Part shown: piece by piece, positions 11,444 to 33,857 of the stretch | Layout of the letters: the number at the start of each line of letters is the position of its first letter | Position numbering within the stretch: position 1 is the first letter of the stretch | NCBI GenBank assembly: GCA_040081735.1 | Contig: JBEBFX010000001.1 | Span: forward strand, 1 to 41,188 | Source: Alphaproteobacteria bacterium | GTDB taxonomy: Bacteria > Pseudomonadota > Alphaproteobacteria > UBA11222 | DNA: 41,188 nt | Reading direction: 5' to 3' | Position numbers and translations under genes: made by a program | The notes under the pieces: model-generated | Seen by the model: the letters and a program-made list of their open reading frames with translations, nothing else | What the model was told of the DNA's origin: nothing | Databases searched by the model: none

Positions 11444-11746
11444 TTACTGCATGCGATTACCAATCGTTTTCAGCGCCAGTTCAAGAAATGGCCGCACGCC
11501 CCGTGGCCCCCGGATGGCTATATCCCTATCTGTGCTATTATATATGTCGTTCAATTCGGCGTCGGTGGAATTCCCCCCAAGAAGCGTGGCGAGAAAATCC
11601 CGCAAAACGCCATATTCCTTTTTTTGAACAAATCCCAACGCCCCATTGATCAGGTCCTGCGGCTCGGGGCCATAATCATCGAATGCATCCTGATGAAGGC
11701 CCTGACAAAATTTGTAAAATACTTCCGGGATGTTCATCTGGATCAC
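11444..11746 (-). CDS. Putative CdiI-type immunity protein
   Basis: 100-aa acidic protein. The FYKFCQGLHQDAFDDYG ... LRDFLATLLGGNSTDAELNDIY pattern resembles small contact-dependent-inhibition immunity proteins (from memory). Its GTG start overlaps the toxin TGA (GTGA at 11743-11746), and an alternative ATG lies at 11737. G+C is lower than in the cluster. Confidence 0.5.
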   Translation of the reverse strand: MIQMNIPEVFYKFCQGLHQDAFDDYGPEPQDLINGALGFVQKKEYGVLRDFLATLLGGNSTDAELNDIYNSTDRDIAIRGPRGVRPFLELALKTIGNRMQ

Positions 11747-12381
11747 CGTCCAATTCTTGGGTGATAGTTTCTTGGAAATGCGTTGCGGATACGATAGCCG
11801 GATACCATATGGGTGTCGCGAACAATAAATACGCCAACCTGATAGGTCTTACGTATTCTGATAAGGTCTATGTCTGGCGGGTCCACATAGGCTTCCTTGC
11901 CCGTAGGAAAACCAAACCTGTGTATCAAAAACTCCCCGGCGGATTGGCCGCTTGCCACGCGCGCCACCGCGTCAGGATTCATAACAATCGTGCGTTTGAT
12001 TAAATCCCGTGCATCTTCCTCGGACGCGAACGATCCGTTCCTGTCAATTCCTAAGCTGATAAAGTAGCTGCGATATTGTGATCGCTGGATACGCGCAATC
12101 AGCTCGGCTTCGCTCTTGCCAACGTGCCTGTTTATAATATGCTGGTTAAGATATCTGTCTTCGCCGGGGCGGTCATTATCCGCAACGGGGATAACTCCAT
12201 TATCCCCGTCCGTCCATTGCCCGCCATCCGGATGGCCCGCAGGCACGCGCGGCTGGCTGGGATTGAAGGCGGTTTCAAAAGCCAGTTGCAGCCGCAGCAT
12301 GGCAATATCCATGCGCAGCCCGGCATGCTCCCAGCGCAACCGCGACAGCGCCAGCTCTCTGTCTGAAATGCCCCTAGACAT
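11743..12381 (-). CDS. Putative polymorphic-toxin-type nuclease (RNase A-like CdiA-CT-type domain candidate) with a short helical N-terminus
   Basis: 212-aa ORF. It has an N-terminal helix, a PRVPAGHPDGGQWT linker, and then YLNQHIINRHVGKSEAELIARI. That H-x3-RHVGKS motif recalls RNase A-like toxin domains, from memory. The start ATG overlaps the SleB-type gene stop by 8 nt (ATGTCTAG). Confidence 0.5.
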   Translation of the reverse strand: MSRGISDRELALSRLRWEHAGLRMDIAMLRLQLAFETAFNPSQPRVPAGHPDGGQWTDGDNGVIPVADNDRPGEDRYLNQHIINRHVGKSEAELIARIQRSQYRSYFISLGIDRNGSFASEEDARDLIKRTIVMNPDAVARVASGQSAGEFLIHRFGFPTGKEAYVDPPDIDLIRIRKTYQVGVFIVRDTHMVSGYRIRNAFPRNYHPRIGR

Positions 12382-12826
12382 AAAACATATGCGCGCCGAT
12401 CAGCGCCGTGGGTTTCATGCTTTTCGCCCATACCGGTTCAATGTCATGATGATGATAATGCGTCGCCCCGGCGGCCGGGTCTTTGATCAACCCGCCCCAA
12501 ACCTGGCAGCCAATCGCGAAGGCGCGGCAATAGGCCGCATTCTCAAACCCGATCCGCATCAGTTTTGCCGCATTCGGATCGCCCGGGTTCCAGGCGGAAA
12601 ATTGCCGCGGCGCCCGGCACGCCCCCGCCAGCGTGCCGTCGCCGAATAGCGGATGCGCCCGCTTCTGGCGGGCAACAAACACCTGCGCCGCCGCCACCCG
12701 GTTGCGCATTACCCAGGCCACCGCCGCCTGGCCTTCTTCGCTTTCACCGCGCGCCTCGCCCCAGATGCTGCGCGCGAGCGTCTCCATATCAAACAGGCTG
12801 GCGTTGTTTATGATATGTTCTTTCAT
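12374..12826 (-). CDS. Cell-wall hydrolase, SleB/Hydrolase_2 family
   Basis: 150-aa ORF. LARSIWGEARGESEEGQAAVAWVMRNRV...ATHYH is the hallmark of SleB-type amidase/lytic enzymes. It overlaps the DUF2793 gene by 4 nt. Confidence 0.8.
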   Translation of the reverse strand: MKEHIINNASLFDMETLARSIWGEARGESEEGQAAVAWVMRNRVAAAQVFVARQKRAHPLFGDGTLAGACRAPRQFSAWNPGDPNAAKLMRIGFENAAYCRAFAIGCQVWGGLIKDPAAGATHYHHHDIEPVWAKSMKPTALIGAHMFYV

Positions 12827-13542
12827 GCTGAAGCCGCCAGGGTCAGATAATGAATGGCCACGCGGATCACGCCGCCGCTGAAATTACCCCCCGTTGCGCT
12901 GAACCGGATCGGCGTATTGGCGTAAAACGCTGTCGGCCCGGTGACGCCGATATTGCTGCCGCCGGCAGCTATTCCCAGTGTCCCGCCATATTTGGAAAGA
13001 TCGCCGACAATACCGCAATTATAGGATGTTGCCCCGGTAATGGCCGTCTGTACACGCACGGTTACCCCAAACACGATGGCCCGGTCGGGGATCTGAATTG
13101 CCGTGTCCGATGTGGCGGCCAGCGCCAGTGTGTGGCTTTCCTCCAGTATCCGGAACAGGGTGCGCGCCCCCAGCGGGGCTTTCGCCACATCGCTTTCGCG
13201 CGCCTTCAGGGTGTGCGTCCATGCGCCGCCGTCATAAAACACCGGCGCCGCTTCATCCGCGACCCACGCCTGCCAGCCATTGCGCGGTGTACGGAATATC
13301 CACGCCCCCGCCTGCCAGGCGGCAATCTTGCCTGCCTGCCCGGCCCATGCGCCGGTTGGGCTGCCCGCCACCAGATAACGATCCCCTTCAACGGGGCTAG
13401 CCGGCGGCGCGGCCAGATCGCGGTCCAGAACGCTAAGCTGCACCAGCGTATCCAGTCCGCTCAGCGCCTCGTTCACCGTCACATGCTTTTGCGATTGCGC
13501 CGCCTCCAGATAGGCCAGCGCCAGATTTGCCGAATTAGCCAT
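12823..13542 (-). CDS. DUF2793-family phage/GTA structural protein (fibre/spike-like)
   Basis: 239-aa ORF. The N-terminus LALAYLEAAQSQKHVTVNEALSGLDTLVQLSVLDRDLAAPP...GDRYLV is typical of DUF2793 proteins found after g15 in alphaproteobacterial GTA-like clusters. Confidence 0.7.
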   Translation of the reverse strand: MANSANLALAYLEAAQSQKHVTVNEALSGLDTLVQLSVLDRDLAAPPASPVEGDRYLVAGSPTGAWAGQAGKIAAWQAGAWIFRTPRNGWQAWVADEAAPVFYDGGAWTHTLKARESDVAKAPLGARTLFRILEESHTLALAATSDTAIQIPDRAIVFGVTVRVQTAITGATSYNCGIVGDLSKYGGTLGIAAGGSNIGVTGPTAFYANTPIRFSATGGNFSGGVIRVAIHYLTLAASA

Positions 13543-16500
13543 TGAGTATTTCCTCCTTTGCCATGCCGCGCCCGAAACTCACCGAAACCTGATAGACCGC
13601 CACCTGAAGGGGCAATGCCGGGGCCGCGCCAAAATCCGCCGTTTGCTGCGCTGCGGTGTACACCAATGCCGGGCCCGCAGCCGTCAGGGTGCGCTTGACC
13701 ACCGCCCCGCTCATAATATCCACCTCATAGCGCTCGCTCTCTTCCGCCAACGGCACTTCTGTCTGTTCCCAGCTATCCCCGCCAACGCGGGTGCGCCGTG
13801 CCCAGCTGATGGTCAGATCATTATTCGAAAGATTGCGCGCCACCCGGACCTGCGCCACACTTAGCGGACGAAGGCCGACGCCGCGCCCCGTCACCATCAG
13901 GCTCTGATAGGTAAAATCTTCAAGCGTCCGGGATGCCGGGCCATAGCGCCAGTTCAACGCCAGCCCGCGCTGCTCGGCGCTCAGGCCGGTTTCCTGCACC
14001 GCGCCATTCAGCAATACAAACCGCGCTCCGCCGGCAACCGGATTGCCCATCGCCCGTTCGGTTCCCGCCTGGCCGCGCAGCAGACGCGAGAGCTTGTATT
14101 TATTGGGCGCCACCAGTTCCGCATTGGCGAACTGAAACACTTCCCACGCGCCGCTGGCGTTGCGCATCGCGGCCACATTGGCGCCGCCCAGCACCGCCAG
14201 GTCATCGCGGGATTCCAGCACGCCGCCGAACAGCGTAACCCAAACCGCATTGCCCATATCCCAGCGTCCGGCTGGCCCTGCAAAAAAATCCGTGTCGCTG
14301 TCCCCCATGACCGCCGGGGTCTCGATCCTGCAATCCAGAACATAACCGCTGACGGCCGGGCTTTTGTAGAGCAGGATGGCCCCCGGCCACGGGCTGGCGT
14401 ACGCCGCCGCCCGTAACACATGCCCGGCCTCCGCCCCGTTCAATAAAGGCAGATCAAGAAAATCCACGATCGGCCGCCCCACACTGTTTACCGGCGGCAG
14501 GGCCGGCGCCCGCTCGGGCCCTGCCAGAAACCGGACAAGCCCTGCATCCACCTGTATGGCTTCCACTGTGCGCAAGCCAGCCTCGCCCACACGTTCAATA
14601 CGCATGAAATGGCTGCTTTCAGGCCCGGAAAATTCAATCACATCCCCCGGCTCCAGCGCCATTGAAGACGGCGGCAGCGCAAATCTGGCCCGTTCACGCC
14701 CGGTCCAGGTTTCCTGCAACAGACTGTCGGCAATTTTCTGGCCCTGCGCCTGGCTCATGACAATGGGTAAATTCAATGCCGAAACCCGCGCGCTTGTGCC
14801 CGTCAGCTTGCGGGAATCCACGCTGCCCTGCCGATAATCGGCGGACCCGTCAATATATTGCAGCTTCATGGCCAGTGGCAGTTCGGTTTCCTGGGCGCGG
14901 GTTAACTGATAATCCGGCTGCCCCTCGCCCCCTGACGCGACAAGGTTCGTATGCGACACGCTGGCCACAGGTGTCCGGCTCCGATGCAGCAGACGGATGA
15001 TTCCGGAACTTTCCATGGCGTCAAAAAAATAGGCCTGCATCAGGGGCTGCAACGCCTCGCGCGCTGACATAATCCGGTCAATGACAAAACCATCCACAAC
15101 GCCGGTTAATCCGGTGGCGTCGAACTGGGTGAAGCCATTTTCAAATAAAATTGCCTCCGCCAGTTCCCGCAATCCGCTTGCGCCCAGCCGCCCGGTAATC
15201 CAGTGCCCCAGCCGCCAGTTGCCCGCATCGGTCCACAGATCGGTCCGCGACGGGAAATCAGGCCAGGGCCGGGCGTCCCAGGTCCAGACATAAATATTGT
15301 CCGGATCAACCATCCGGCCGCCATAAACGGTGCTGACCGGATTATTGGCCGCCACAAAGGCCGGGTTGGCGGGGTCCCAGAATTGATGAATGGCCTGTAA
15401 AAACCGGCGCTGAATAAAGTCATCCGGCGTTCTGCGCGAATAATGCGGCGCGAAACTTTCCGATGATTTCGGGTCGATGAATTTATTGGGTTCGTTGGTC
15501 CCCTTGTCTACCGCCGGACAGCCGGTCTCGGTAAACCAGATCGGCTTGCTTTCGGGTGTCCACGCGGTCGGCGTTCCACTTTGCACACCGCCTGGCCGGT
15601 TGAAATGTTGCAGGCCCCACCAGTTCCACAAATCCTTGTAGCGGTACACCCAGGGCTTTGCATAGGCGCCGTCGCTGATCGGCGTGCGGATTTGAGCATC
15701 GCGATTTGCAGGCGATGCGTAATACCAGTCATACCCTTCGCCGCCGCGAATATTGCCCCGCAGATAGGCCAGATCATAAATTGAACTGGCTATCTGCGCG
15801 TCCAGATGCCCATCGCCTTCACGCCAATCGCTTAACGGCATGTAGACATCGACGCCAACAAAATCCACATTGGCGTCAGCCCATAGGGGATCAAGATGGA
15901 AATACACATCGCCGCTGCCATCGGCGGGCTGATGGCCGAAATATTCGGACCAATCCGCCGCATAGGAAATTTTCGCCGCAGGAAGCAACCCTTTCACCGC
16001 GCCTGCCAGACTTTTCAGATGGGCAACGGCGGGATAGGTGCTGACGCTGTCTCGAACCGTGGTAATCCCGATCAACTCGGAACCGATAACAAAGGCGTCA
16101 ACGCCGCCCGCCGCCGCGCACAGATGGGCGTAATGCAACACCATCCGCCGCAACCCGTTATCGCCCGCGCCGCTATAGCTTACCGTGGTTCCGGAGACCG
16201 AAAAATCCCCGGCGTTCGCGCTTCCGAAAAACGCGGCGATCTGGGACGCCGCCGCCGATGTCTTGTCCGGTGTTCCAGTAACTCCCGGCGCCGGATGACA
16301 GGTAATTCTTCCACGCCAGGGATAAACGGGCTGCCCCGCACTTCCCGTATAGGGGTCCGTTAATGTGTTCCCGGCGCCGATGTCCATCATGACAAACGGA
16401 TAAAACAATATCCTGAACCCGCGCGCCTTCAGATCGGCAATCGCGCGCACCACACCGGCGTCCGACGGCGTTCCCCCATAGGCGGGCGTGTCATTGATCT

Positions 16501-17488
16501 GGCTGACCACATGGGCGGAACCGCGCCCCACCCCATCGACCTGCCAGGCGTCGGGCAGCGTAACCTTATCGGCATTCTCGACGCCGGGAAATATCTGACA
16601 GCTTCCGGCGCGCAGATCCGTGCCAAACCACGACACCACCAGCGCCACGGTCTGGCAATTGGCGCAGGTTGCCTGCAACTGATCCAGCGCCAGATCCCAG
16701 TCGCTCGATCCGCCCGAATTATTCTGGTTTTCCGGCGCAGTCCTGCCCTTGCCCAGATCCCTGATCTGAATCTGCGGATCATACCCAAACTCCGTCGATC
16801 CCGGAATCAGGTCAACCCCGCGAATAAGACTTTCAACATCGCTCAGCGCCCGGAATACTTCAAACGACAACTGCGGCACCCGATTGCCAAACTGTTCAAT
16901 GGCCAGATCCTCGAACATTACATAGGCCAGATCGCGGTACGCGGGCGCGTTTCCCGCCCCCTCAATTGCCTCCATTAACGGGTCCGGCATTTGATCCGCC
17001 GTGCCGCGGTACACACGCAGATTTACATCGCTTAAATTCAACGGCCGTCCGTCCGCCCACACCCGGCCGATGCGGGTTATTTCGCCTTCGCACAGGGCCA
17101 CCGCAAAACGCGCAAAATAGGTGTACCGGGTGGTGCTTGTTGTGCTTGCGCCCGTGACCGCGCCCAGTCCCTTGCCGCTTCGCCCCCCTGCGGACTGACT
17201 GCTGGTGCTGGCCACTTCCCTGAATTTTGCCGCCCAGATGACCTGACCGGAAATCCGCGCGCGGCCATAAACCCGTGGGATGGGCGCACCCTCCGTCGAT
17301 GTCAGAATGCGCAATTCATCCAGTCTTGGCCCTTCAAGCTGCCGGCCGCCGGCGCCGCCAAACAGCCGCTGATCAACAAGATTGCCCGCAACCGCCGCGC
17401 CAAGTCCAAGCGCTGCCGTCGCAAAAAATCCAAACCCCGCGCTGCCGGAAATAGCAGTGGCGGCGGATGTCAAAACCAGTGTCGCCAT
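13535..17488 (-). CDS. GTA g15-like host-specificity / baseplate 'megatron' protein
   Basis: 1317-aa ORF in the g15 position after NlpC/P60. It has a central glycoside-hydrolase/TIM-barrel-like region and a C-terminal phage-tail-protein region. Its size and position are characteristic. Confidence 0.85.
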   Translation of the reverse strand: MATLVLTSAATAISGSAGFGFFATAALGLGAAVAGNLVDQRLFGGAGGRQLEGPRLDELRILTSTEGAPIPRVYGRARISGQVIWAAKFREVASTSSQSAGGRSGKGLGAVTGASTTSTTRYTYFARFAVALCEGEITRIGRVWADGRPLNLSDVNLRVYRGTADQMPDPLMEAIEGAGNAPAYRDLAYVMFEDLAIEQFGNRVPQLSFEVFRALSDVESLIRGVDLIPGSTEFGYDPQIQIRDLGKGRTAPENQNNSGGSSDWDLALDQLQATCANCQTVALVVSWFGTDLRAGSCQIFPGVENADKVTLPDAWQVDGVGRGSAHVVSQINDTPAYGGTPSDAGVVRAIADLKARGFRILFYPFVMMDIGAGNTLTDPYTGSAGQPVYPWRGRITCHPAPGVTGTPDKTSAAASQIAAFFGSANAGDFSVSGTTVSYSGAGDNGLRRMVLHYAHLCAAAGGVDAFVIGSELIGITTVRDSVSTYPAVAHLKSLAGAVKGLLPAAKISYAADWSEYFGHQPADGSGDVYFHLDPLWADANVDFVGVDVYMPLSDWREGDGHLDAQIASSIYDLAYLRGNIRGGEGYDWYYASPANRDAQIRTPISDGAYAKPWVYRYKDLWNWWGLQHFNRPGGVQSGTPTAWTPESKPIWFTETGCPAVDKGTNEPNKFIDPKSSESFAPHYSRRTPDDFIQRRFLQAIHQFWDPANPAFVAANNPVSTVYGGRMVDPDNIYVWTWDARPWPDFPSRTDLWTDAGNWRLGHWITGRLGASGLRELAEAILFENGFTQFDATGLTGVVDGFVIDRIMSAREALQPLMQAYFFDAMESSGIIRLLHRSRTPVASVSHTNLVASGGEGQPDYQLTRAQETELPLAMKLQYIDGSADYRQGSVDSRKLTGTSARVSALNLPIVMSQAQGQKIADSLLQETWTGRERARFALPPSSMALEPGDVIEFSGPESSHFMRIERVGEAGLRTVEAIQVDAGLVRFLAGPERAPALPPVNSVGRPIVDFLDLPLLNGAEAGHVLRAAAYASPWPGAILLYKSPAVSGYVLDCRIETPAVMGDSDTDFFAGPAGRWDMGNAVWVTLFGGVLESRDDLAVLGGANVAAMRNASGAWEVFQFANAELVAPNKYKLSRLLRGQAGTERAMGNPVAGGARFVLLNGAVQETGLSAEQRGLALNWRYGPASRTLEDFTYQSLMVTGRGVGLRPLSVAQVRVARNLSNNDLTISWARRTRVGGDSWEQTEVPLAEESERYEVDIMSGAVVKRTLTAAGPALVYTAAQQTADFGAAPALPLQVAVYQVSVSFGRGMAKEEILNG

Positions 17489-17493: not shown

Positions 17494-17922
17494 CTATATC
17501 TCCAGTGCTGGAAAACGGAACGCATACGCCCTGCGCCGCGCCCAGGGGCCAAGCGCCTCTTCGCGCACCGCGTGTCCAGAACAGGCATGAATAATCTGTC
17601 CGGGTGCGGATAAAATTCCCGCGTGCCGGGCCGGCCCGCTTCTGATTATCCGGAACATCAGAACGTCGCCCGGCGCTGCATCTGCAACGCCGGTCTCAAG
17701 CAGATGCCGCCGGGCGGCGTCGCGCATCAGCTCCCCGGTGTCTGCCTCTGCCCAGTCCATGGCATAGGGCGGGGCCTGTTCCGGCTCCGCGCCATACAGA
17801 TCGCGCCACACCCCGCGTATCAGGCCAAGACAGTCAGCACCCGCGCCCCGGCAACTGGCCTGATGCTGATAGGGCGTTCCCACCCAGGCGCGCGCCGCCT
17901 CAATAATCCGTTTCCTGATCAT
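17494..17922 (-). CDS. NlpC/P60-family cell-wall peptidase (GTA g14-like)
   Basis: 142-aa ORF with the catalytic Cys context GADCLGLIRGVW and a downstream HAGIL motif, in the conserved g14 position. Confidence 0.8.
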   Translation of the reverse strand: MIRKRIIEAARAWVGTPYQHQASCRGAGADCLGLIRGVWRDLYGAEPEQAPPYAMDWAEADTGELMRDAARRHLLETGVADAAPGDVLMFRIIRSGPARHAGILSAPGQIIHACSGHAVREEALGPWARRRAYAFRFPALEI

Positions 17923-18818
17923 TATAACTGCATGCCGTCATTGCTGTCGCCAGGCCGTGGATAGGACTGAATCCAGTCATTTCCGGGCATCAGGTGAAAG
18001 CCGCGAAAATTCACCGCATTGCTGAATTTGCTCCTGCAGGTCGCAAACTGCTTGTCGCACCCCGCCGTAATGGTGAATGTATCGCCTGCCGCGATGAGGT
18101 GCGGCATCCCCAGCCACAATGCAACGGCCACAACCCCATCCGCCAGCACATGCTCCTTGACCTCCATCGCCAGCCCTGCGTTGGCGCCATTTGTCCAGCG
18201 GATTTTGCCGCGTGAAAACCATTCGCTGGTGAAACCGGACAAACCGTTGGCTATGAACGCCCGCCGGTTATCCGCCAGAACCGGCACGCTCTGAACGCTG
18301 CCCGTCCCCTTGAACGCCGCCGCCGTCAGATCAACCGCGCATCGGCTGCTGCCGACATCTGTGTCACAGCCATACTGGTACAACCGTCCCAGGGGCTGAT
18401 TGAGATGATGCGCCAACCCCCGCATTTCCGCGCGAAACCCAACGGCGCCGCGCGTAACTTCACCAAGATTGCCGCTGGCCAGAATAACCCGCTGGCTGAC
18501 ATTCTGCCAGTTGACGCGCAGAATCTGAATTTGCGCGTTATCAAACATTCCCGCCGCCAGATCGGCTTCATTCAGCGTGGCGGCACTCAACGCCCCGATC
18601 GCCTCAAGATCATCGACATTCAGACCAAGCGAGATTTCTATCGCACTGGCCTCAAATCCGCTTAGCGCGGAATAGGTCACGCCATCAAAATTCAGATCGC
18701 GGTCATGACTGGTAAAACCGGAAACCGCACCGGTAACAAGGCTCAGCTTCCAGCAATAACACAGGCTCGCCGCCCCGCTATCCAGATGGGCCTGCATGCC
18801 TGCGGGCAGTATCCTCAT
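17922..18818 (-). CDS. DUF2163-family distal tail protein (GTA g13-like)
   Basis: 298-aa ORF. The N-terminus is LDSGAASLCYCWKL...GFTSHDRDLNFDGVTY and the C-terminus is CDKQFATCRSKFSNAVNFRGFHLMPG (BR0599-type). Confidence 0.8.
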   Translation of the reverse strand: MRILPAGMQAHLDSGAASLCYCWKLSLVTGAVSGFTSHDRDLNFDGVTYSALSGFEASAIEISLGLNVDDLEAIGALSAATLNEADLAAGMFDNAQIQILRVNWQNVSQRVILASGNLGEVTRGAVGFRAEMRGLAHHLNQPLGRLYQYGCDTDVGSSRCAVDLTAAAFKGTGSVQSVPVLADNRRAFIANGLSGFTSEWFSRGKIRWTNGANAGLAMEVKEHVLADGVVAVALWLGMPHLIAAGDTFTITAGCDKQFATCRSKFSNAVNFRGFHLMPGNDWIQSYPRPGDSNDGMQL

Positions 18819-21490: not shown

Positions 21491-21520
21491 GGGCGTACCT
21501 CGCTGATTAAGTTATTGAAA

Positions 21521-21719
21521 TAGGGCGTTTTGTGATCTGATTGAAACAAGCCTGGCTTTCTCGCATGTTGCCGATCCCCTCTCGCCGCGCTAGCGCTGGC
21601 GCAGCGGGCCCTGTCCCTCCCCTTTGCAAGGGGAGGGAACCTCGACGCGAACACCGCCTCCCCCGGAAAGGGGGAGGTTGGGTGGGGGTCCGATTCAATG
21701 TGAAAACAAAATGCTCTAG
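21521..21719. repeat. MITE-like element, family 2, copy B (199 bp), inside the structural operon
   Basis: It is in the same orientation as 11184-11355 and ~90% identical to it, with an extra ~30 bp (ctctcgccgcgctagcgctggcgcagcgggc). It fills nearly the whole g7-g8 intergenic gap. Confidence 0.85.
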
Positions 21720-21733
21720 GCTCGAAGGCTGCC

Positions 21734-23381: not shown

Positions 23382-23384
23382 CGT

Positions 23385-24515: not shown

Positions 24516-24530
24516 GGGGTGCGCGATCCG

Positions 24531-24911: not shown

Positions 24912-24935
24912 TTCCTTTCCAGCTTCTGTGAAGGG

Positions 24936-25330: not shown

Positions 25331-25360
25331 AAAAAAAAGGGTGAAATTTTCATTTCGCCC
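25331..25360 (-). terminator. Intrinsic terminator after the major capsid gene
   Basis: The minus strand reads GGGCGAAA-ugaaaa-UUUCACCC (8-bp stem, one C-A mismatch) followed by U8. It lies 22 nt after the capsid stop. Confidence 0.6.
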
Positions 25361-27313: not shown

Positions 27314-27328
27314 GATAACTCCCGGCAT

Positions 27329-27354
27329 AAAAAAAGCGCCCCGGCTGGAGCGCT
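27329..27354 (-). terminator. Intrinsic terminator closing the inserted two-gene cassette
   Basis: The minus strand reads AGCGCUCC-agcc-GGGGCGCU followed by U7 (plus-strand A-run 27329-27335). It lies directly upstream of the protease RBS. Confidence 0.65.
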
Positions 27355-27435
27355 GTAAATTTTCTTCCCATTCCCTCATTGGGAAAGGGGATGCTTATTC
27401 CGCTTGGCTATATGGCCACCACGATGTTCACTACT

Positions 27436-27987
27436 TCACTTCCTTTGCCGTACTTTTTTTGCAGGCACTTTCTTTGCCTCGACCGGCGTTTCACCGGACT
27501 TGTTCCCCCGCGTAACCAGTATGGAAACGATACTGGCGGCGCCAGCCCCAACCAGCGACATACCCACAGCTGTCGCACCTATGTAAGCGCAATACGCCGC
27601 TCCTGCTATAAAGCCAAAGCTGACTAAGACGCCACTTAGCTGCCCAAAAACTTCACCGAAGGCGCTCCACCTTAAGACCCTGCTCTCAAGGCCTTGCCTG
27701 TGAACCTGCTCTTTTTCCGCCATACTAATGATGCGATTTGCAGAGCCAGAAAGAATTTCTTCATATCCCGCCAGGTGTGCGGGAGGTGGGATTGGTCCCT
27801 GGAACGACTCATACCGTTCCACAGTACGCGTAACAGTCATAACAATCTTATTCTTTGTGTCTTTATTGAGAGACGTTCCCCTAAGTAGAGGCTCAAGTTC
27901 TTCTTCGAGCGCCTCTTTTAGGCCATCCTCATCCGCGTGCTCATTTACTGAGACGGATCGTCCATCGGCGACGGTAGGGTCGCTCAT
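27436..27987 (-). CDS. DUF2335-family membrane protein
   Basis: 183-aa ORF. FQGPIPPPAHLAGYEEILSGSANRIISMAEKEQVHRQ matches the DUF2335 signature. Two C-terminal TM helices are followed by a strongly basic tail (KKVPAKKVRQRK). G+C is lower than in the cluster. Confidence 0.6.
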   Translation of the reverse strand: MSDPTVADGRSVSVNEHADEDGLKEALEEELEPLLRGTSLNKDTKNKIVMTVTRTVERYESFQGPIPPPAHLAGYEEILSGSANRIISMAEKEQVHRQGLESRVLRWSAFGEVFGQLSGVLVSFGFIAGAAYCAYIGATAVGMSLVGAGAASIVSILVTRGNKSGETPVEAKKVPAKKVRQRK

Positions 27988-28265
27988 TTCTTGAATGTAT
28001 GATCTTCAATTGCTGACCAAAGATCCCCGCCAACCTTCGCCCAATCTCCGGCCAGACCTTTACCCTTATAGGCTCGGGCGGATACCGGGGGCATTATTAC
28101 GTTGGCTTGTGCGCTCATCCCCTTCAAGAAACCCCTCTTCAGGCCAGACGTAATTGCGTCAACAACAATACGCCCATCCGAAGCGGTTCTTTTCGCAGTC
28201 TCGCGTTCAGACCGTCTAATACCGTCCTTTGTCAGTGTTTTCATAAAGATTCTCATATAATGCAA
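27984..28265 (-). CDS. Hypothetical small basic protein (first gene of the cassette)
   Basis: 93-aa ORF with a 4-nt overlap with the DUF2335 gene. Alternative ATGs lie at 28256 and 28244. I recognise no family. Confidence 0.35.
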   Translation of the reverse strand: MHYMRIFMKTLTKDGIRRSERETAKRTASDGRIVVDAITSGLKRGFLKGMSAQANVIMPPVSARAYKGKGLAGDWAKVGGDLWSAIEDHTFKK

Positions 28266-28548
28266 TGGGCGATATCGCTAGTTCACTTAATGAATATATA
28301 CCCATAAAGCCTACACTGCAAGACTCGGTTGCTTTTTTACGTCCCAATTTCTATCTAATTGTCAAGTATTTTTTTAAGAAGCTGTAAATTTCGTGGGTCA
28401 TTTGCTTTAAATTGTAGTGTTTCCTAACAAATTGTGGCGGCTCCTCCACCTTTTACAATTCATTTTTCACCACGGGTTTCAGGTATATAATTTCCAACTG
28501 TAAGACTTTACGTCATAAAGTTTCTTTAATTGATTATTTCGAGACACC
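28266..28548 (-). promoter_or_regulatory. AT-rich non-coding region, probably the promoter/operator of the cassette
   Basis: 283 bp with no ORF of 60 aa or more, and far more AT-rich than anything nearby. AATTGT/ACAATT occurs three times (about 28410, 28431, 28455). A TACAAT -10 candidate lies on the minus strand (28416-28411). Confidence 0.4.
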
Positions 28549-28815
28549 CTATCCCCCCTGCATCCGCTCCAGTGTCGCTTCGATGCGTGCCAGCGCCTCC
28601 AGCGTATGACGCAGCTTTTCCTCCTGGCGCACCAGCCGCTCCGACATTTCGGTCTGGAGGGTGGATGCGCTTTCCAGCCGCCGCACCCGCTCGCCCATGC
28701 CGCCCGCCCATATCAGCGCCGTGCCGATCTGCACGCCCAGCAGCACAAACAGCATGACCGGAATTTTGCGGTCGATCCCCCAGCCGGGTTTTTCCGCCCC
28801 GTCAATGGCGCTCAT
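28549..28815 (-). CDS. Small single-pass membrane protein with a coiled-coil tail (g3.5 position)
   Basis: The start is chosen at ATG 28815, with GGGAGG 6 nt upstream. The protein reads MSAIDGAEKPGWGIDRKIPVMLFVLLGVQIGTALIWAGG (TM), followed by a heptad-like RRLES...LEALARIEATLERMQ. Confidence 0.5.
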   Translation of the reverse strand: MSAIDGAEKPGWGIDRKIPVMLFVLLGVQIGTALIWAGGMGERVRRLESASTLQTEMSERLVRQEEKLRHTLEALARIEATLERMQGG

Positions 28816-28834
28816 CCGTAAACCTCCCATTCGT

Positions 28835-30061
28835 TTATGTTTTGTTCTTTAAATCAGCAAGCCGGTCACCCTCTGCGACCGGCGCATATCCCGTAGCGGC
28901 GCGCTTTTCATTGATCGTCAGAAAATCCGCCGCGCGCACCCGCTCCCATAATGAATCCCGGTCCGCCGCCAGCGCCTCCACCTGATCCGCGTCATACCAG
29001 AGCCGCAGCCCCGGCCCAAAGCGCGGCCCCAGCCACTGGGTCATCGCTGCGCACGCCTTGCCCGCCAGCGGCAAAATGGTCTGCCGGTGAAACGCAAGAT
29101 TGGCTTCCCGGTAATTGGCGTAGGTATTGTCGCCCTGTATGCCCAGCAGCATCGGCGGCACCCCGAACGCCAGCGCGATCTCGCGCGCCGCCACATGTTT
29201 GGACTGAATGAAATCCATATCCTTCGGATTGAACGACATTTCCTTCCAGTCCAGCCCGCCTTCCAGCAGCAGCGGGCGTCCTGCATTGGCCGGTCCCTGA
29301 TAATTGTCCGACAATTCCTGCTTGAGACGCGACAGCTGATCCTGGCTTAAATTTGCACTGCCATCCGCGCCATGATAAATCAGCGCGCCCGAGGGCCGCG
29401 CGCCATTATCCAGCAGCGCCTTGTTCCATCCCGCCGCGGCGTTATGAAGATCAATGCCCAGCGCCGCCGCCTCGATGGGCGAGAATCCGTAATGATCGTT
29501 ACTCGGGTGAAACAGACGCATATGCAGAATGGGCGCGCGCCCGCGCGCGGCGTCCATCTCGAAGCGCACACTTTTACCGCCTGTGGAATATTCATAGGCG
29601 GCCGGCCATCCACGCGCGCCCGGTATCACTTTCATCCGGTCCGGACGCAGCACATATAATTCGCGCACCGCCCCGCGCAGATCGGCGGCCTCAATATAGG
29701 CGTTGCCTGCAATCTGCAAAAACCCGAACCAGGCTTCTTTCATCTCGATGCCGCTCTGCAACGGGTTTGGCCGCGCCAGCAGGCTCAACAGCGGATGCGT
29801 GTCCAGCTCCCGCTCGCGCCCGCCCGTGTTTTCATACAATATCCACGGCACGGCGGCGGCGGTTTCACTGATCATCCGTACACAACGATAAGCGATGGCG
29901 TTGCGCGCAAAACCCTCCTGCGCCAGATCGCCATAGTGGCGCGGCGTCCATACCGGCGTCCCCTGGCCATGAAGGGCGATCAGGGAACCGGCGGCGCTTT
30001 GCTTGGCCGCCATTGGCGGGCGAAAACCAAACCGGCGCAGAATGCTGAATGTGTCTCTCAC
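28835..30061 (-). CDS. HK97-family portal protein (GTA g3-like)
   Basis: 408-aa ORF with the typical pattern YRCVRMISETAAAVPW...GNAYIEA...FSPIEAA...IALAFGVPPMLLG. Confidence 0.9.
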   Translation of the reverse strand: MRDTFSILRRFGFRPPMAAKQSAAGSLIALHGQGTPVWTPRHYGDLAQEGFARNAIAYRCVRMISETAAAVPWILYENTGGRERELDTHPLLSLLARPNPLQSGIEMKEAWFGFLQIAGNAYIEAADLRGAVRELYVLRPDRMKVIPGARGWPAAYEYSTGGKSVRFEMDAARGRAPILHMRLFHPSNDHYGFSPIEAAALGIDLHNAAAGWNKALLDNGARPSGALIYHGADGSANLSQDQLSRLKQELSDNYQGPANAGRPLLLEGGLDWKEMSFNPKDMDFIQSKHVAAREIALAFGVPPMLLGIQGDNTYANYREANLAFHRQTILPLAGKACAAMTQWLGPRFGPGLRLWYDADQVEALAADRDSLWERVRAADFLTINEKRAATGYAPVAEGDRLADLKNKT

Positions 30062-30080: not shown

Positions 30081-31418
30081 TCATAGCCGCAGCACGCGCG
30101 GCTCTCCCGCTTCGCCGGTCAGCATCAATTCCGTCAGCGCCCATACCAGCGCATCGACCCGGTCCGGGCTCCACCCCGCAGCGGCGCGGTTGAATCCCCG
30201 GGTAAATTCCGCCATTTCATCCTCCAGCGCCGGTAATGCGCCGACATGATGCACCCGGCCCTGTTCATACAAGGCGGACACAGGCTCAGCCCGCGCCGCC
30301 TTGCCCCGGCTGGCGCGCACGGACCGCACCGGTAAATTTGGATCAACCTGTCTGATCACCGATTCCACCATGTCGCCGCCCTGGTTGACTTCCGCCACCA
30401 GCCTGTCGGCCTGGAAATCGCGATAGGCGGCCACGGCCCTGCTGGCCCAGACATGGGGCGACACGCCCTGGACCGAATAGTCAGCCAGCACGTAGCCTGC
30501 GCCATCCACCCCAAGCCCCGCCACAATAATCCCGCACGCATCACTATTGGCCGTGCTGGCCGCAGGGGGATCAACGGCCACCACAATGCGCCTCATTTCG
30601 GCGGCGGTTTTCACCCTGCATCTGTCGATCTGCGCCCGGCTCCACAATGCGTCTGGATTATCTTCCAGCAGTTCGGCCAGCAATTCCTGGCGTCCCAGCC
30701 GCGTGCCTTCGTACTGCGCCGTTATGCGATCAAAAAACTGCGGCGCCAGATTTGCGGCGTTGGCGTAACTGGTTGCCCGCGACACCACTGTATGTGCATC
30801 CGCCAGCAGATCGCGCAGCAGGCGTTGCGGACGTGGCGTCGTCGTAATCACCTGGCGCGGATCGGCCCCCAGCCGCAGGCCGAATTGCAGCATGTCCCAG
30901 GTTTCACGGCTGTGCCGCCATTTCGTCAATTCATCCGCCCACGCCCCATCGAACTGCGGACCGCGCAGTCCATCGGGATCTTCGGCGGAAAATAACTGCG
31001 CCTGCGCCCCGTTGGGCCAGATCAGGCGGCGTTTGGACGCTTCATATTTTGGCCGCGCCCAGGCGGGCGAAATGGCCAGAATGCCGCTCTCTCCCTCCAC
31101 CATCACATCGCGCGCGCTGCCGATGGTTTCACCGATCAGCGCGATACGTGACCGCTGTCCACGGCCCAGCGGCGTCTTGCCTGCGACGGATGCGCGCACC
31201 CATTCGGCCCCGGCGCGGGTTTTGCCCGCACCCCGTCCGCCCAGCAATAGCCAGCTTACCCATTTACCATCGGGCGCCAGTTGATCCTCGCGCGCCCAGA
31301 AAGGCCATAACCAGAGAAGCTGCCTGCGCAATCCGGGCGCAAGACCGGCAATAATTTCATCCCTCCGGCGTTGCGGCAGCGAGGCGAGCCAGACGGCGTT
31401 GAACTTCATCCCAGCCAT
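30081..31418 (-). CDS. Terminase large subunit (GTA g2-like)
   Basis: 445-aa ORF with Walker A LLGGRGAGKTRAGAEW, a DE-type Walker B (ADELTKW) and a C-terminal nuclease-like region (VAVDPP...DACGIIVAG). Confidence 0.9.
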   Translation of the reverse strand: MAGMKFNAVWLASLPQRRRDEIIAGLAPGLRRQLLWLWPFWAREDQLAPDGKWVSWLLLGGRGAGKTRAGAEWVRASVAGKTPLGRGQRSRIALIGETIGSARDVMVEGESGILAISPAWARPKYEASKRRLIWPNGAQAQLFSAEDPDGLRGPQFDGAWADELTKWRHSRETWDMLQFGLRLGADPRQVITTTPRPQRLLRDLLADAHTVVSRATSYANAANLAPQFFDRITAQYEGTRLGRQELLAELLEDNPDALWSRAQIDRCRVKTAAEMRRIVVAVDPPAASTANSDACGIIVAGLGVDGAGYVLADYSVQGVSPHVWASRAVAAYRDFQADRLVAEVNQGGDMVESVIRQVDPNLPVRSVRASRGKAARAEPVSALYEQGRVHHVGALPALEDEMAEFTRGFNRAAAGWSPDRVDALVWALTELMLTGEAGEPRVLRL

Positions 31419-31905
31419 CCAGCGCCCCCAAATTATTCTCTGCCATTATGGCGTCCGCTTCAATGACGCTGCCGGGATGGGCGCCGGCTTCACGCTCCAG
31501 CACAATCAGCTTCTCCAGCGCCCGCGCCAGAGATGTCAGAATGTCCGCCGCGCCCTTTTTTTCCGTGGCGCTCATAACTCCCTCATTGGGATGATCCAGA
31601 TGCAGTTCCAGCTCATCCGCCAGCCGGTTGACGATGTTCATCATGCGCGCCAGCGCCCGGGCCGCGTTGACGTCACCCCCGGCCATCGCAAATTTCAGAC
31701 GCCTGTTTTTGATGCTCGGGCGGCGCGCCGGTTTGCCGGGTTTTACAGTATCGCTGGTGCCGGGCCGCGCCCAGCAGCAGCGATTGGCTTTGGCATAAAT
31801 GCTCACCGGCGCCAGCCCATGCTTGCGGGCAATTTCCGGCACCGGCATGGCGCCCGCATGATAGTCCCGCGAAACGGCCTCCCAATCAATCTGACGCTTC
31901 GTCAT
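31357..31905 (-). CDS. HTH protein in the small-terminase (g1) position
   Basis: The start is chosen at ATG 31905, with AGGGAG upstream. MTKRQIDWEAVSRDYHAGAMPVPEIARKHGLAPVSIYAKANRCCW looks like an N-terminal HTH. The gene overlaps terL by ~60 nt. Confidence 0.45.
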   Translation of the reverse strand: MTKRQIDWEAVSRDYHAGAMPVPEIARKHGLAPVSIYAKANRCCWARPGTSDTVKPGKPARRPSIKNRRLKFAMAGGDVNAARALARMMNIVNRLADELELHLDHPNEGVMSATEKKGAADILTSLARALEKLIVLEREAGAHPGSVIEADAIMAENNLGALDGWDEVQRRLARLAAATPEG

Positions 31906-32034
31906 CGTCGCTCCCTGAAAAAATATGGTTACGCACAAGCCACAAAAAAAAGCGTCTCACTTGCGCGGGCGCTTTTCATCGTGTTGCGTGACGTTAGTTC
32001 GTTTTTTGATCAGGTTGAATCGCCTCACCCACTG

Positions 32035-32123
32035 TGTCACCCCGCACTTGTTGCGGGGTCCAGGTACAAAATTACTGGCTTTTCTTTGTGGCTCCTGGAC
32101 CCCGGAATAAATCCGGGGTGACA
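32035..32123. repeat. Pair of REP-like GC hairpins in inverted orientation
   Basis: The sequence is tgtcaccccgcacttgttgcggggtccagg ... cctggaccccggaataaatccggggtgaca. Each half is a 7-bp hairpin. The outer 10-mer (32035-32044/32114-32123) and the inner 11-mer (32054-32064/32094-32104) are also perfectly complementary. Confidence 0.8.
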
Positions 32124-32281
32124 GGCTGAATCCGGGATATGCGTCAATCTGAACAGAAAACGATCTAAATCTGCGTCATGGCCATTGGCCGCCGCCGCGT
32201 CTGAAACACGTCAGGCGGGAGACACACTTTCGACCATGGACAAATGTATACGCTATAGCGTTACGAATAGCAAGCATTATT

Positions 32282-33133
32282 TTACGTATTATGTAAATTA
32301 TTTTCATCTGAAACGTGCACGGTTCGCGGCGAGTGCACCCCGGGCCTGTTTTTTGGCGCGTCCTTCCGGGCAATGCCATAATACGCTGCCAGCCGGTCCA
32401 GAGCGATCCCCAGAACCACCTTGCCCGCCCGCACGGGCCAGCCCAGATGCCGCTCGGCCGCCGCCAGTCCATTCAAATAACAGCATACCTGCAACAATAT
32501 GCCGCCCAGATCGGGGCCGACGGCGTCAATCGCGGCCCATAGCCGGTCCTTGGCGGCGATCATCGTATCGTTCATGCTGGCCTGATCGCTGCCCGCCCCC
32601 CGCCCTGCGCGATTGATTGGCATGCCCCATGACGCGGTTACTCTCGGGGCCAGGTTGGCAAGGGTAAAGTCTCGCCGCAGGCGTTCCCCGGCGGCAAACT
32701 GTTCAATAGTAATCAATGGTTTGCCATGTTTATCTTTATGGCTGACCAGCCATCCCAACGGGCTTTCCGCATGATTGACGCGCACCACAACTGCTTCACC
32801 TTTTTCTGTGCGCTGTTCCTTAAGGTCAAGTATCTGATGCTGGCTGCGATAGGGGGAATCTGGCGCCTGCCTGCGCCGCAGACGCGCGCGCCCCAGCCGG
32901 GAAATACGCCACTCACCAGGTGTCTTGTCCGATGCCAGAATCAGTTCCTCAGTCATCAGCTGGCGAACGGCCTTCTCGCCCGCAACCAGCACAGGCCTGG
33001 CAAATCTGTTCCTGGGGACAAAAACCCCCATCCCGCCCCCGTCCGTCAAGCGGCCAACTGCCTGAAATTCGCCAAGGTGAAACAGAACAGCCTCGACTTC
33101 AGACGTTTTCTCTTTTTTATCGGTGATTTTCAT
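32282..33133 (-). CDS. DUF6456-type protein, candidate GafZ/GafA-C-terminal-like GTA activator
   Basis: 283-aa ORF. ESPLGWLVSHKDKHGKPLITIEQFAAGERLRRDFTLANLAPRVTASW ... DRLWAAIDAVGPDLGGILLQVCCYLNGLAAAERHLGWPVRAGKVVLGIALDRLAAYYGI matches my memory of the alphaproteobacterial DUF6456 pattern. A GAGGT RBS is present. Confidence 0.55.
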   Translation of the reverse strand: MKITDKKEKTSEVEAVLFHLGEFQAVGRLTDGGGMGVFVPRNRFARPVLVAGEKAVRQLMTEELILASDKTPGEWRISRLGRARLRRRQAPDSPYRSQHQILDLKEQRTEKGEAVVVRVNHAESPLGWLVSHKDKHGKPLITIEQFAAGERLRRDFTLANLAPRVTASWGMPINRAGRGAGSDQASMNDTMIAAKDRLWAAIDAVGPDLGGILLQVCCYLNGLAAAERHLGWPVRAGKVVLGIALDRLAAYYGIARKDAPKNRPGVHSPRTVHVSDENNLHNT

Positions 33134-33278
33134 AACATACCTCTATAAGATGCAGGTTTATATTCCTTTTATAGGACTTATTGCTGAATTACAAGTTAAA
33201 AATATTTCCTATAACATTCGTTTAATTTTGTTATATTCTCGTTTATCGTAAATTTATTGATTCGGAACATTCTGGTTC
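33134..33278. promoter_or_regulatory. AT-rich divergent control region with repeated CTATAA half-sites
   Basis: CTATAA occurs at 33143-33148 and 33209-33214, and inverted (TTATAG) at 33169-33174. Two of these are embedded in TCCTATAA. The region lies between the divergent activator-like and repressor-like genes. Confidence 0.5.
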
Positions 33279-33857
33279 ATGCATAATAAAATCCGTCATT
33301 ACCGTAAACAGCGTGGCTTGACGCTGGCCTCGCTCGGGGCCGCCATCGGCCTGACGCCGCAATCCGTATCGCGCATTGAAACTGACAAAATGCGGCTGTC
33401 CACCGTGTGGATGGAACGCATCGGGGCTGCGCTGAATGTCAGCCCGGTGGATCTGATTGAGGCCGCCCTCCCCGGCGGCGGGGCCGAATTGATCGGCGAG
33501 ATCGGCGCAAATGGCGCCTGCGCCCCGCTTGATCCGCAACCCTTCCGGATGGCGCTTCCCGGACCGGACACCAAGGTCATCCGGCTGGCGCGCGCCTGCG
33601 GGCCGTATCGCGCCGGGGAATATCTGGTGTGCACCCGGCTTCCGGAACCCCGGCATGAAACAGCGCTAGGGCTTGATTGTCTTGTTGAATTAACCGGCGG
33701 CGCCCGGAACTTATGCCGCGTCGTGACACAATCCGCCAAACCGGGAAAAGTCAAAACCTTCACATTGGCGGGGATCGATTCGGGAAGCTGGGTGTTGCGC
33801 AAACAGCGGATCGCCTGGATCGCCCCGGTGCGCATGCGCCTGCAATTCACCGCCTGA
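33279..33857 (+). CDS. XRE-family HTH regulator with a cI/LexA-like C-terminal domain
   Basis: 192-aa ORF. The HTH is IRHYRKQRGLTLASLGAAIGLTPQSVSRIETDKMRLSTVWMERIGAALNVSPVDL. The C-terminal beta-rich domain is laid out like peptidase S24, but I cannot find the GxSM...K catalytic pattern. Confidence 0.7.
   Translation: MHNKIRHYRKQRGLTLASLGAAIGLTPQSVSRIETDKMRLSTVWMERIGAALNVSPVDLIEAALPGGGAELIGEIGANGACAPLDPQPFRMALPGPDTKVIRLARACGPYRAGEYLVCTRLPEPRHETALGLDCLVELTGGARNLCRVVTQSAKPGKVKTFTLAGIDSGSWVLRKQRIAWIAPVRMRLQFTA

Follow-up and report, generated by a model that had tools for sequence, protein, structure and literature searches.

A probable RcGTA-type gene transfer agent cluster with linked candidate regulators, an additional fiber cassette and variable cargo in an uncultured alphaproteobacterial genus

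Gene organization of the cluster

Contig JBEBFX010000001.1 (C174 in our numbering), analyzed here over its entire length of 41,188 bp and referred to as the window, is part of a metagenome-assembled genome (MAG; GCA_040081735.1) of an alphaproteobacterium of the UBA11222 lineage that comprises 3.23 Mb in 316 contigs. At positions 11444-33857 it carries a cluster of head and tail genes of the kind known from RcGTA, the gene transfer agent (GTA) of Rhodobacter capsulatus. GTAs of this type are domesticated sets of phage head and tail genes whose particles carry random host DNA from cell to cell. With a probability of roughly 85%, we take it for a vertically inherited, selectively maintained RcGTA-type GTA cluster in an uncultured alphaproteobacterial genus; the close relatives of this genome are all metagenome-assembled, uncultured Alphaproteobacteria. 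The gene order was established by Pfam, NCBIfam and PHROGs scans of every sizeable open reading frame (ORF), and features lie on the minus strand unless stated otherwise.

The head genes begin with the small terminase terS (g1, 31357-31905; phrog_1206, E 1.7e-14), which overlaps the start of the large terminase terL (g2, 30081-31418; Terminase_6N/6C) and probably starts at an ATG at 31905 that has a ribosome-binding site and shares its reading frame with the TTG start listed at 31938. The portal gene (g3, 28835-30061; Phage_portal, E 7e-93) is followed, in the g3.5 position, by a gene for a 93-aa single-pass membrane and coiled-coil protein (28549-28830; transmembrane (TM) segment at residues 23-41) that is kept in every GTA cluster compared. 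Further on lie the prohead protease (g4, 26729-27379; Peptidase_S78, E 1e-38), the HK97-fold major capsid protein (g5, 25382-26623; Phage_capsid, E 6e-89), the head-tail connector or adaptor (g6, 22056-22703; Phage_connect_1) and the head completion protein (g7, 21734-22054; Phage_HCP, E 3e-24).

The tail module opens with the tail completion protein gp17, formerly DUF3168 (g8, 21104-21490; Tail_completion_gp17, E 2e-31), and the tail tube (g9, 20661-21074; Phage_tail_2). Two tail assembly chaperone genes, g10 (20281-20664; Phage_TAC_11) and g10.1 (20081-20311; Phage_TAC_6), overlap, and reading of both frames revealed a canonical -1 slippery heptamer, C_CCU_UUC, at 20296-20302 in the overlap, at which -1 frameshifting between them is predicted. 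The short tape measure of at most 247 aa (g11, 19459-20202; NF058675 RcGTA_tape, E 6e-53, residues 39-246) precedes four genes assigned by Pfam, namely the distal tail protein with DUF2460 (g12, 18815-19444), the hub, formerly DUF2163, with BR0599 (g13, 17922-18818), the NlpC/P60 protein (g14, 17494-17922) and the 1317-aa GTA_TIM 'megatron' (g15, 13535-17488). A gene for a DUF2793 tail-fiber-type protein (12823-13542; PF10983, E 3e-34) overlaps the g15 stop and is followed by a SleB-type cell-wall hydrolase gene (12374-12826) identified by family scans as Hydrolase_2 plus DUF7742.

At both ends the cluster extends beyond these genes. On the terminase side lies a gene for a 283-aa DUF6456 protein, a candidate activator and anti-terminator of the GafA/GafZ type (32282-33133; PF20057, E 9e-47, residues 117-253), which was missing from the gene list of a preliminary description of this DNA. 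Divergent from this gafA gene, on the plus strand, is the gene for a 192-aa XRE-family repressor candidate (33279-33857; HTH_31/HTH_3, E ~1e-10). After the SleB gene, with which the earlier list had ended, come a gene for a 212-aa polymorphic-toxin-like protein with a CdiA-CT RNase A domain (11743-12381; PF18431, E 5e-11) and a 100-aa ORF (11444-11746), an immunity candidate. The previously listed order from terS to SleB was confirmed by our scans, but terS is the gene at 31357-31905, and 33279-33857, from which the upper end coordinate of the block derives, is the XRE gene. For the same reason, the block is co-directional in its structural genes, all on the minus strand, but not at this upper end. 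Two ORFs were rejected as genes: the minus-strand frame 33299-33850 gave no family match, in contrast to the clear XRE-HTH matches of the plus-strand frame, and 21487-21786 corresponds to a dispersed repeat resembling a miniature inverted-repeat transposable element (MITE).

Relation to RcGTA and to bacteriophages

In sequence searches of the PDB, the best full-length matches of six core proteins were proteins of the solved RcGTA particle. The capsid protein matched Rcc01687 (E 9e-100), the portal Rcc01684 (E 8.6e-124), the tail tube Rcc01691 over 137/137 aa (E 1.4e-46), the distal tail protein g12 Rcc01695 (E 5e-76), the hub g13 chain 6tba_7A (E 2e-64) and the megatron g15 Rcc01698 over residues 1-1311 (1101 bits). 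The DUF2793 protein matched 8gtc_S, which is part of the baseplate in the marine siphophage structure 8GTC (E 3e-31). Homologs of RcGTA g1-g15 lie in the conserved order, and the scans recognized 14 or more of the 17 head-tail genes, the number that has been used as completeness criterion for RcGTA-like clusters (PMC10883770). A tailocin was rejected because capsid, portal and terminase are present, and a satellite of the PICI type (phage-inducible chromosomal island) because integrase and replication genes are lacking while the head-tail set is complete.

The head-tail module alone cannot decide between GTA and phage, because genuine phages carry it too. Homologs of g12-g15 occur in MW202777 (circular, 45 kb), in a Desulfofustis phage and in Rhodobacter phage RcFrancesLouise, with g15 at 44-48% identity, and the capsids of the first two are related to the window capsid at 47-50% identity. 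Tape-measure length separates the two groups: in about 75 chromosomal clusters retrieved by means of the capsid, the frame of the tape measure spans 178-260 aa, with one of 371 aa, versus approximately 630-700 aa in the genuine phages carrying the module. The window's tape measure is of the short RcGTA type and not of phage length. The two best 'phage' matches of the capsid (55-56%), MW091529.1 and MW462191.1, were deposited as 'Bacteriophage sp.' and are bacterial contigs carrying RcGTA-like clusters; their tape measures have 176-181 aa, and efflux, penicillin-binding protein (PBP) and Ccm host genes lie alongside. Misfiled entries of this kind inflate the apparent likeness of GTA capsids to phages.

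We calculated a maximum-likelihood capsid tree from chromosomal clusters, RcGTA and two true phages, MW202777 and the Desulfofustis phage. The window capsid falls into a clade of 30 chromosomal clusters (SH-aLRT 95), and both phages stand outside. Subclades follow host families (Rhizobiaceae, Aestuariivirgaceae, Micropepsaceae and Parvibaculaceae), with the window's genus and its sister genus G011 adjoining the Micropepsaceae group.

Conservation and selection in the genus

The GTA_TIM gene is present as a single copy in the genome, and it was found in eight of nine other genomes of the genus as well as in all three other genomes of the family. Three genus relatives with long contigs (G001, G004 and G007) have in common the order glnA-like gene, XRE gene, gafA, g1 to g15, DUF2793 gene, SleB gene, and the same order from glnA to SleB is seen in a further genus member (L134/L135) that was recovered from several metagenomes. 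The locus is hence syntenic and kept in the genus beside a glnA-like gene, which answers the check on synteny and vertical conservation proposed in the preliminary description. The SleB-type hydrolase is kept across the genus, and the DUF2793 gene directly follows g15 in 16 of 19 clusters.

Nonsynonymous-to-synonymous rate ratios (omega) and synonymous divergence (dS) were estimated with the method of Nei and Gojobori (NG86) against three genus relatives. Omega ranges from 0.05 to 0.53 over all cluster genes, so that all structural genes are under purifying selection. The values are 0.06-0.14 for terL (~0.09), portal, capsid, tube, g8, g12, g15 and the DUF2793 gene, ~0.2 for the SleB-type hydrolase, ~0.28 for gafA and 0.13-0.19 for the flanking glnA-like gene. 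Most cluster genes show a dS of 0.5-1.4 (up to 2.1), compared with 0.8-1.3 in the flanks, and the GC content of the cluster is 59.1% versus 57.8% genome-wide. Selection, dS and GC content together are the mark of a long-resident, selected element that is neither a decaying prophage nor a recent arrival, in agreement with the mostly vertical inheritance of alphaproteobacterial GTAs (PMC10883770).

One might instead regard the cluster as a defective prophage remnant that has simply not yet degraded, has no maintained function and makes no particles. Such a remnant could lack lysogeny, replication and identified holin genes, as is the case here, and it would also be in keeping with the MITE-like insertion between g7 and g8, the cargo insertions at several positions and the tail-side flank, which is rearranged among relatives. 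A neutral remnant would, however, show omega near 1 and stop codons, so that both omega and dS speak against it: all of the approximately 30 genes are intact in at least four genus genomes, and omega of the core genes is at or below that of the housekeeping neighbor at a dS of about 0.6-1.4. Conservation moreover includes the regulator pair, the promoter block and the slippery site described above and below, and the glnA-like neighbor is the same across the genus. A remnant hence appears improbable to us, and 'domesticated and maintained' fits the data better than 'decaying remnant'.

Chromosomal setting

The flanks of 11.4 kb and 7.3 kb hold housekeeping genes, which abut both cluster ends; they include LptF/LptG, polysaccharide and nucleotide-sugar genes, the glutamine-synthetase-like (glnA-like) gene and genes for a PEP-CTERM phytase-like protein, TetR and FecR. 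No tRNA was found on the 41-kb contig, and no match to integrase, excisionase or replication families was obtained among its scanned ORFs. In these points, the preliminary description of housekeeping flanks without tRNA and of a block with no integrase, excisionase or replication gene in or beside it was borne out. The genome's three tyrosine recombinases are all located on contigs other than C174. Our search for att-like direct repeats flanking the cluster returned none either, but the earlier statement that flanking repeats are absent needs qualification insofar as one notable direct repeat does exist, a dispersed MITE-like pair (11184-11355 and 21521-21719) that does not bracket the cluster and has many further copies in the genome. 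The contig thus holds no contiguous set of integrase/att, immunity/replication genes and lysis cassette as expected for a temperate siphophage, and its sole phage-regulator-like gene is that of the cI-fold XRE protein.

Lysogeny and replication genes could nevertheless sit elsewhere, for example on contigs C28 and C58, in which case the cluster would be the structural half of a functional temperate phage or of a satellite-helper phage. Both of these contigs are indeed phage-like (C28 with terS, terL, portal and SSB; C58 with Gp80, C13 and C15 paralogs), the XRE protein has a lambda-cI-like fold, and phages with RcGTA-like modules exist (PMC11409702). But C28 has its own terminase and a podophage-type portal, which makes it a separate element, and the cluster, with housekeeping genes abutting both ends, occupies a fixed place next to the same glnA-like gene in members of the genus that come from different samples. 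Its tape measure is of the short GTA type and its capsid lies apart from the true phages, and we consider a split phage highly unlikely. Synteny, capsid tree, purifying selection and flanks free of a lysogeny or replication module together uphold the view, already taken in the preliminary description, that the cluster represents a GTA or a domesticated prophage and not a temperate phage that is still viable.

Regulatory elements

AlphaFold predicts the XRE protein with a pLDDT of 87, and its best whole-chain fold matches in the PDB are lambda cI (3bdn_A, E 1.3e-5) and a lambda-186 hybrid repressor. The product of 33279-33857 is therefore a repressor candidate with a predicted lambda-cI-like two-domain fold. 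The invariant columns of the XRE protein alignment contain no conserved Ser-Lys dyad, so that self-cleavage of the RecA type is not supported. In genus relatives, too, the XRE gene adjoins glnA and gafA. Between the divergent XRE and gafA genes, sequence and motif positions define an AT-rich control region of 145 bp (33134-33278) with an inverted TCCTATAA pair at 33169-33176 and 33207-33214. This motif is not over-represented window-wide (14 found versus 10.8 expected), and only its placement as an inverted pair is suggestive; the region might serve as operator. The sole perfect TTAA-N7-TTAA of the window is located at 36974-36988, upstream of the PEP-CTERM phytase-like gene and outside the GTA control region.

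Like the megatron gene, gafA is present in the genome as a single copy. It lies directly upstream of terS, a position that is kept in the genus and in G011. GafA, which activates RcGTA directly, is itself annotated as DUF6456 (PMC9638019, PMC9765227). In Caulobacter, the homologous proteins GafY and GafZ activate the cluster, and GafZ enables RNA polymerase to pass a long leader and terminators within the cluster (PMC11150451), whereas XRE-family proteins repress the gafYZ promoter (PMC13236601).

Elements of a similar layout are present in the window. A block of ~85 bp by the gafA stop (about 32221-32304) is nearly invariant in four genus genomes with synonymous sites near saturation, and alignment and sequence place within it a promoter-like TTGCTA-17 nt-TATACA (32273-32245), which we presume to be the promoter of the cluster. 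Between this block and terS lies a leader with hairpins (31906-32244, from inverted repeats and folding) that is variable in sequence and 170-375 nt long in the genus, with a hairpin and U-tract before terS in three of four genomes, among the relatives in G001 and G007. In the window, it comprises paired REP-like hairpins at 32035-32123 and a hairpin with U8 at about 31940-31975, just before terS, and its folding energy is -19.3 kcal/mol (z -2.07). Hairpin search and folding located two more elements within the cluster, an intrinsic-terminator-like hairpin with U7 just upstream of the protease gene (27335-27354) and a terminator-like hairpin with U8 after the capsid gene (25339-25360). In one genus relative, a toxin-antitoxin-like pair of DUF4258 and HTH genes is inserted between gafA and terS (L135:8040-8861).

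A fiber cassette between capsid and connector

Capsid and connector genes are separated by ~2.7 kb in this genus only, compared with 23-739 bp in about 75 other clusters. Pfam, PDB, AlphaFold and synteny identify the insert as a five-gene fiber cassette (22703-25307). It encodes a 123-aa protein (24936-25307), a 126-aa lipoprotein with an LAAC lipobox (24531-24911), a 376-aa protein with predicted ConA-like lectin fold (23385-24515), a 130-aa weakly Gp80-like protein (22989-23381) and a 91-aa Gp77 fiber adaptor (22703-22978; Gp77, E 3.7e-26). All five genes are under purifying selection (omega 0.05-0.33).

The 91-aa protein belongs to PF23148, the family of the GP4 gp77 fiber-tail adaptor (91.9 bits against a cutoff of 27, residues 6-87), and matches PDB entry 8jou_D (E 1e-4). 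With 18.8 bits, the 130-aa protein stays below the cutoff of 27 for PF23140 (GP4 gp80 fiber I), and PDB sequence searches gave no significant match for it or for the 123-aa protein. The 376-aa protein is the most divergent of the cluster (47-52% identity). Its predicted fold at residues 20-255 is a ConA-like lectin jelly-roll (pLDDT >90), followed by a variable C-terminus of low confidence. The top fold matches, at 7-14% identity, come from many unrelated proteins and cover lectin-like binding subdomains; from the model we can only assign a probable carbohydrate- or receptor-binding fold of the ConA type and nothing more specific.

A second fiber-type locus exists in the same genome on contig C58 (13862-18160), where it abuts housekeeping genes. 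It encodes a 146-aa protein that scores above the cutoff for the Gp80 family (PF23140, 64.9 bits), a 123-aa paralog of the window protein at 24936-25307 (78% identity) and a 444-aa lectin-fold paralog that is 76% identical over the first 268 aa and ends in a different, repeat-rich C-terminus. The locus could be either prophage tail genes or an ectopic GTA locus. On contig C28 (2929-11776), we found a podophage-type prophage piece with SSB, terS, a terL of 614 aa (54% identity to that of the GTA) and a portal of the SU10 type; contig ends of C28 and C58 were tested for overlap and showed none. Genuine phages of three morphotypes encode homologs of the lectin-fold protein, namely two podophages, one SU10-like and one P22-like, and a siphophage, the last of which has a 123-aa gene, a lectin gene and a Gp77 gene in this order at the end of its tail module. 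Because of these homologs, the second locus on C58 and the prophage piece on C28, we read the insert as a captured, portable phage fiber cassette.

Cargo slots and mobile elements

Between g3.5 and the protease gene, the window has only a cassette of a 93-aa basic protein (27984-28265) and a two-TM membrane protein with DUF2335 (27436-27987; PF10097; phrog_3996, 'moron' membrane protein). GTA clusters in general often have a gap here (46-3457 bp). Most relatives, from both genera of the family, instead carry a complete, co-directional acyl-CoA dehydrogenase gene here (equivalent to window ~27380-28548; L021/L024/L018-L019/L027 and L134:2333-3472), which is missing from the window; in one relative, the DUF2335 cassette and the dehydrogenase gene occur together. 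A metabolic gene kept inside a GTA operon is an odd case. Beside the dehydrogenase of L024 (G007), the same slot also holds genes for an AAA_15/AAA_21 ATPase (393 aa) and a DUF3226 protein (215 aa), a pair that looks like a defense-system cassette.

A further slot lies between g15 and the DUF2793 gene, where three genus relatives have a gene for a MuF-domain protein (272-304 aa) and an oppositely oriented one for a multi-TM protein. The window's genome has such MuF/multi-TM pairs on contigs C206 and C13, away from the GTA, and an orphan copy of the 160-aa multi-TM gene just outside the cluster (10704-11186, plus strand). The pair may represent a toxin/immunity cassette of the MuF polymorphic type. 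Polymorphic toxins with MuF domains are associated with phages (PMC5576092), and our literature search found no paper that links them with GTAs. The RNase-A-type gene and the 100-aa ORF at the cluster end are present only in the window's genome and in G004 (60% and 35% identity). The RNase-A-type protein shares an N-terminal module of ~60 aa with the motif QPRVPAGHPDGGQW with a 222-aa protein on contig C64 (2960-3628), and the C-termini of the two are unrelated; a shared N-terminal module with exchanged C-terminus is the layout of a polymorphic toxin. Taken together, the variable slots carry cargo outside the particle proper.

The toxin-like genes raise the question of whether antagonism might be the main selected role, with polymorphic toxins delivered to non-kin cells and DNA transfer being secondary. 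The toxin/immunity-like pair overlaps the last structural genes, the MuF-domain and membrane proteins of three relatives are encoded between g15 and the fiber gene, and the phage association of MuF toxins noted above would be in line with such a role. Yet the toxin cassettes vary, with many members of the genus lacking them, and packaging of toxins is without support. Moreover, the toxin N-terminal module on C64 and the MuF pairs on C206 and C13 all lie away from the GTA, a pattern that fits mobile cassettes landing at cluster edges. Antagonism as the principal role is thus, in our estimation, very doubtful.

The MITE-like element of ~200 bp is present in the window as two copies, at 11184-11355 and, between g7 and g8, at 21521-21719 (repeat families D1 and D4). 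Copies on contigs C75 and C144 share 96% identity with the latter, and more than 40 contigs contain a 30-nt core of the element, which the window also has at 5138-5169 and 38479-38508. In relatives, no copy is located between g7 and g8.

Discussion

Conserved order, a short tape measure, separation of the capsid from bona fide phages, vertical inheritance and purifying selection on all structural genes argue for an RcGTA-type GTA cluster that is maintained by selection, with the caveats that the branch of RcGTA is not resolved and that the tail-side junction varies. These are among several points that weigh against this assignment. The RcGTA capsid forms a long branch outside the 30-row clade, and the capsid tree therefore does not show that both belong to the same clade. 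Although the tape measure covers positions 17-219 of the 220 positions of NF058675, its 179.7 bits are under the 220-bit NCBIfam equivalog cutoff. The tail-side junction is not kept, and each genus genome has a different neighbor there. No perfect CtrA box (TTAA-N7-TTAA) is found at the gafA promoter and control regions. The MITE-like element between g7 and g8, seen in this genome only, could be polar on the tail genes. As the genome is a MAG of 316 contigs, linked modules on other contigs are formally possible, yet both flanks on C174 are housekeeping. Finally, particles, packaging and transfer are predictions from the genes.

Lysis is a further point on this side, as no holin or complete lysis system was identified in our scans. 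A genome search for the GH108 endolysin family gave no match, but the controls were equally silent, which makes it uninformative. The SleB-type hydrolase, which has neither signal peptide nor TM segment, might contribute to release or to entry. The genome encodes ComEC and DprA for uptake, but these do not discriminate between the possibilities. The cluster had previously been called self-contained, and this holds insofar as activator, repressor candidate, tail-fiber gene and wall hydrolase are encoded in cis, but not with respect to lysis or to the second fiber-type locus on C58.

From the architecture and in analogy to the XRE repressors of Caulobacter gafYZ, we propose that the cI-like XRE protein would keep the divergent gafA off. 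Once expressed, the DUF6456 protein might switch on the conserved promoter that lies directly behind gafA, as GafYZ does in Caulobacter, and might take RNA polymerase through the leader and the internal hairpin/U-tract terminators by a similar anti-termination. A single transcript of ~20 kb would then provide terminase, portal, protease, capsid, neck, short tail and the g12-g15 baseplate with DUF2793 fibers, as homology suggests, with tail length set by the tape measure of ~210-250 aa. The terminase presumably fills heads with pieces of host DNA smaller than the 22-kb cluster, and lysis would release the particles, with the SleB-type hydrolase as a candidate contributor. For the fiber set, gene content, selection and phage origin are established in the genus; the particle is probably also decorated with the horizontally acquired Gp77-type adaptor, small fiber subunit and lectin-fold protein.

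We may further speculate that the GTA is no frozen relic but an evolving vehicle tuned to its host, controlled by a cI-like/GafA switch in cis. Its captured fiber cassette, with Gp77 adaptor, small fiber subunit and a lectin-fold receptor-binding protein whose C-terminus is swappable, might exchange with the second locus or the resident podophage and so re-target the particles. The vehicle would also carry toxin cassettes, of the RNase-A type in the window and with MuF domains in relatives. We regard this broader reading as unlikely at present. If it were true and any of these toxins entered the particles, the GTA would at the same time serve for kin-discriminating delivery.

RcGTA-like clusters were predicted in 701 of 1,642 alphaproteobacterial genomes (PMC10883770); with hundreds of genomes having them, one more such cluster is expected. 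The cluster described here adds an uncultured family, represented solely by MAGs, to those with well-preserved GTAs, and it is compact, with activator, repressor candidate, conserved promoter, internal terminators, tail fiber and wall hydrolase on one stretch of 22 kb. This layout makes the two-tier model of GafA activation and anti-termination testable on a single cloned fragment. The genus-specific fiber cassette, with close paralogs in the genome and relatives in three phage morphotypes, offers a case for how GTAs gain or change receptor specificity. Toxin, MuF, acyl-CoA dehydrogenase and defense-like cargo in fixed slots suggests that GTA operons are landing pads for mobile cassettes, which bears on the annotation of such clusters.

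Comparison with known systems

The cluster is alike to that of R. capsulatus (rcc01682-rcc01698; 6TBA, 6TB9, 6TEH) in the order g1-g15. Both also have a short tape measure of the RcGTA_tape family, the g10/g10.1 pair and a regulator of the GafA (DUF6456) type. In R. capsulatus, gafA (rcc01865) is, as far as is known, not linked to the cluster. Receptor-binding proteins, i.e., head spikes and tail fibers, and the lytic module are at ectopic loci there (bioRxiv 10.64898/2026.07.19.739414; PMC5026251), whereas the window has gafA, the cI-like repressor candidate, the DUF2793 fiber gene and the wall hydrolase in or beside the cluster. It differs, moreover, by the five-gene fiber cassette between g5 and g6 and by a capsid that is only distantly related, as seen from the long branch.

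CcGTA of Caulobacter crescentus (CCNA_02880-02861, with GafYZ, RogA/CdxB and LypABC) likewise is a chromosomal RcGTA-like cluster, and the DUF6456 profile, run as a control, also matches in Caulobacter. Its XRE repressors, which act on the promoter of the activator genes, its long 5' leader and the internal terminators that GafZ overcomes (PMC11150451, PMC13236601) have candidate counterparts in the window, and neither system has a canonical holin-endolysin pair that was found. In contrast, GafY and GafZ are separate proteins, whereas the window has a single 283-aa DUF6456 protein directly upstream of the cluster. The genes for RogA and CdxB lie elsewhere in the genome (PMC9632790, PMC13236601), while the repressor candidate of the window is adjacent and divergent, and the Caulobacter tail-fiber homolog CCNA_02456 lies outside the core cluster.

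True siphophages, namely RcFrancesLouise, Desulfofustis phage LS06-2018-MD02, Caudoviricetes sp. MW202777 and the Roseobacter RDJL phages, share the g12-g15 quartet (g15 with 42-48% identity) and a DUF2793-type fiber after g15, and some an HK97 capsid at 47-50% identity. They differ by genomes of 41-46 kb with DNA polymerase, helicase and recombinase, by tape measures of ~630-700 aa, by holin/endolysin or muramidase and by capsids outside the chromosomal-cluster clade. The Ralstonia podophage GP4 has a fiber system with the gp77 adaptor and the chain-like gp80 fiber monomer (PDB 8JOU), and the 91-aa protein of the window belongs to the same Gp77 family, but here the genes lie inside a siphovirus-type GTA cluster, together with those of a lectin-fold protein, a lipoprotein and a 123-aa protein. 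In kind, then, the cluster is of the known and common RcGTA type, and what is particular to it is the putative cis-linked switch, the extra fiber cassette and several cargo genes.

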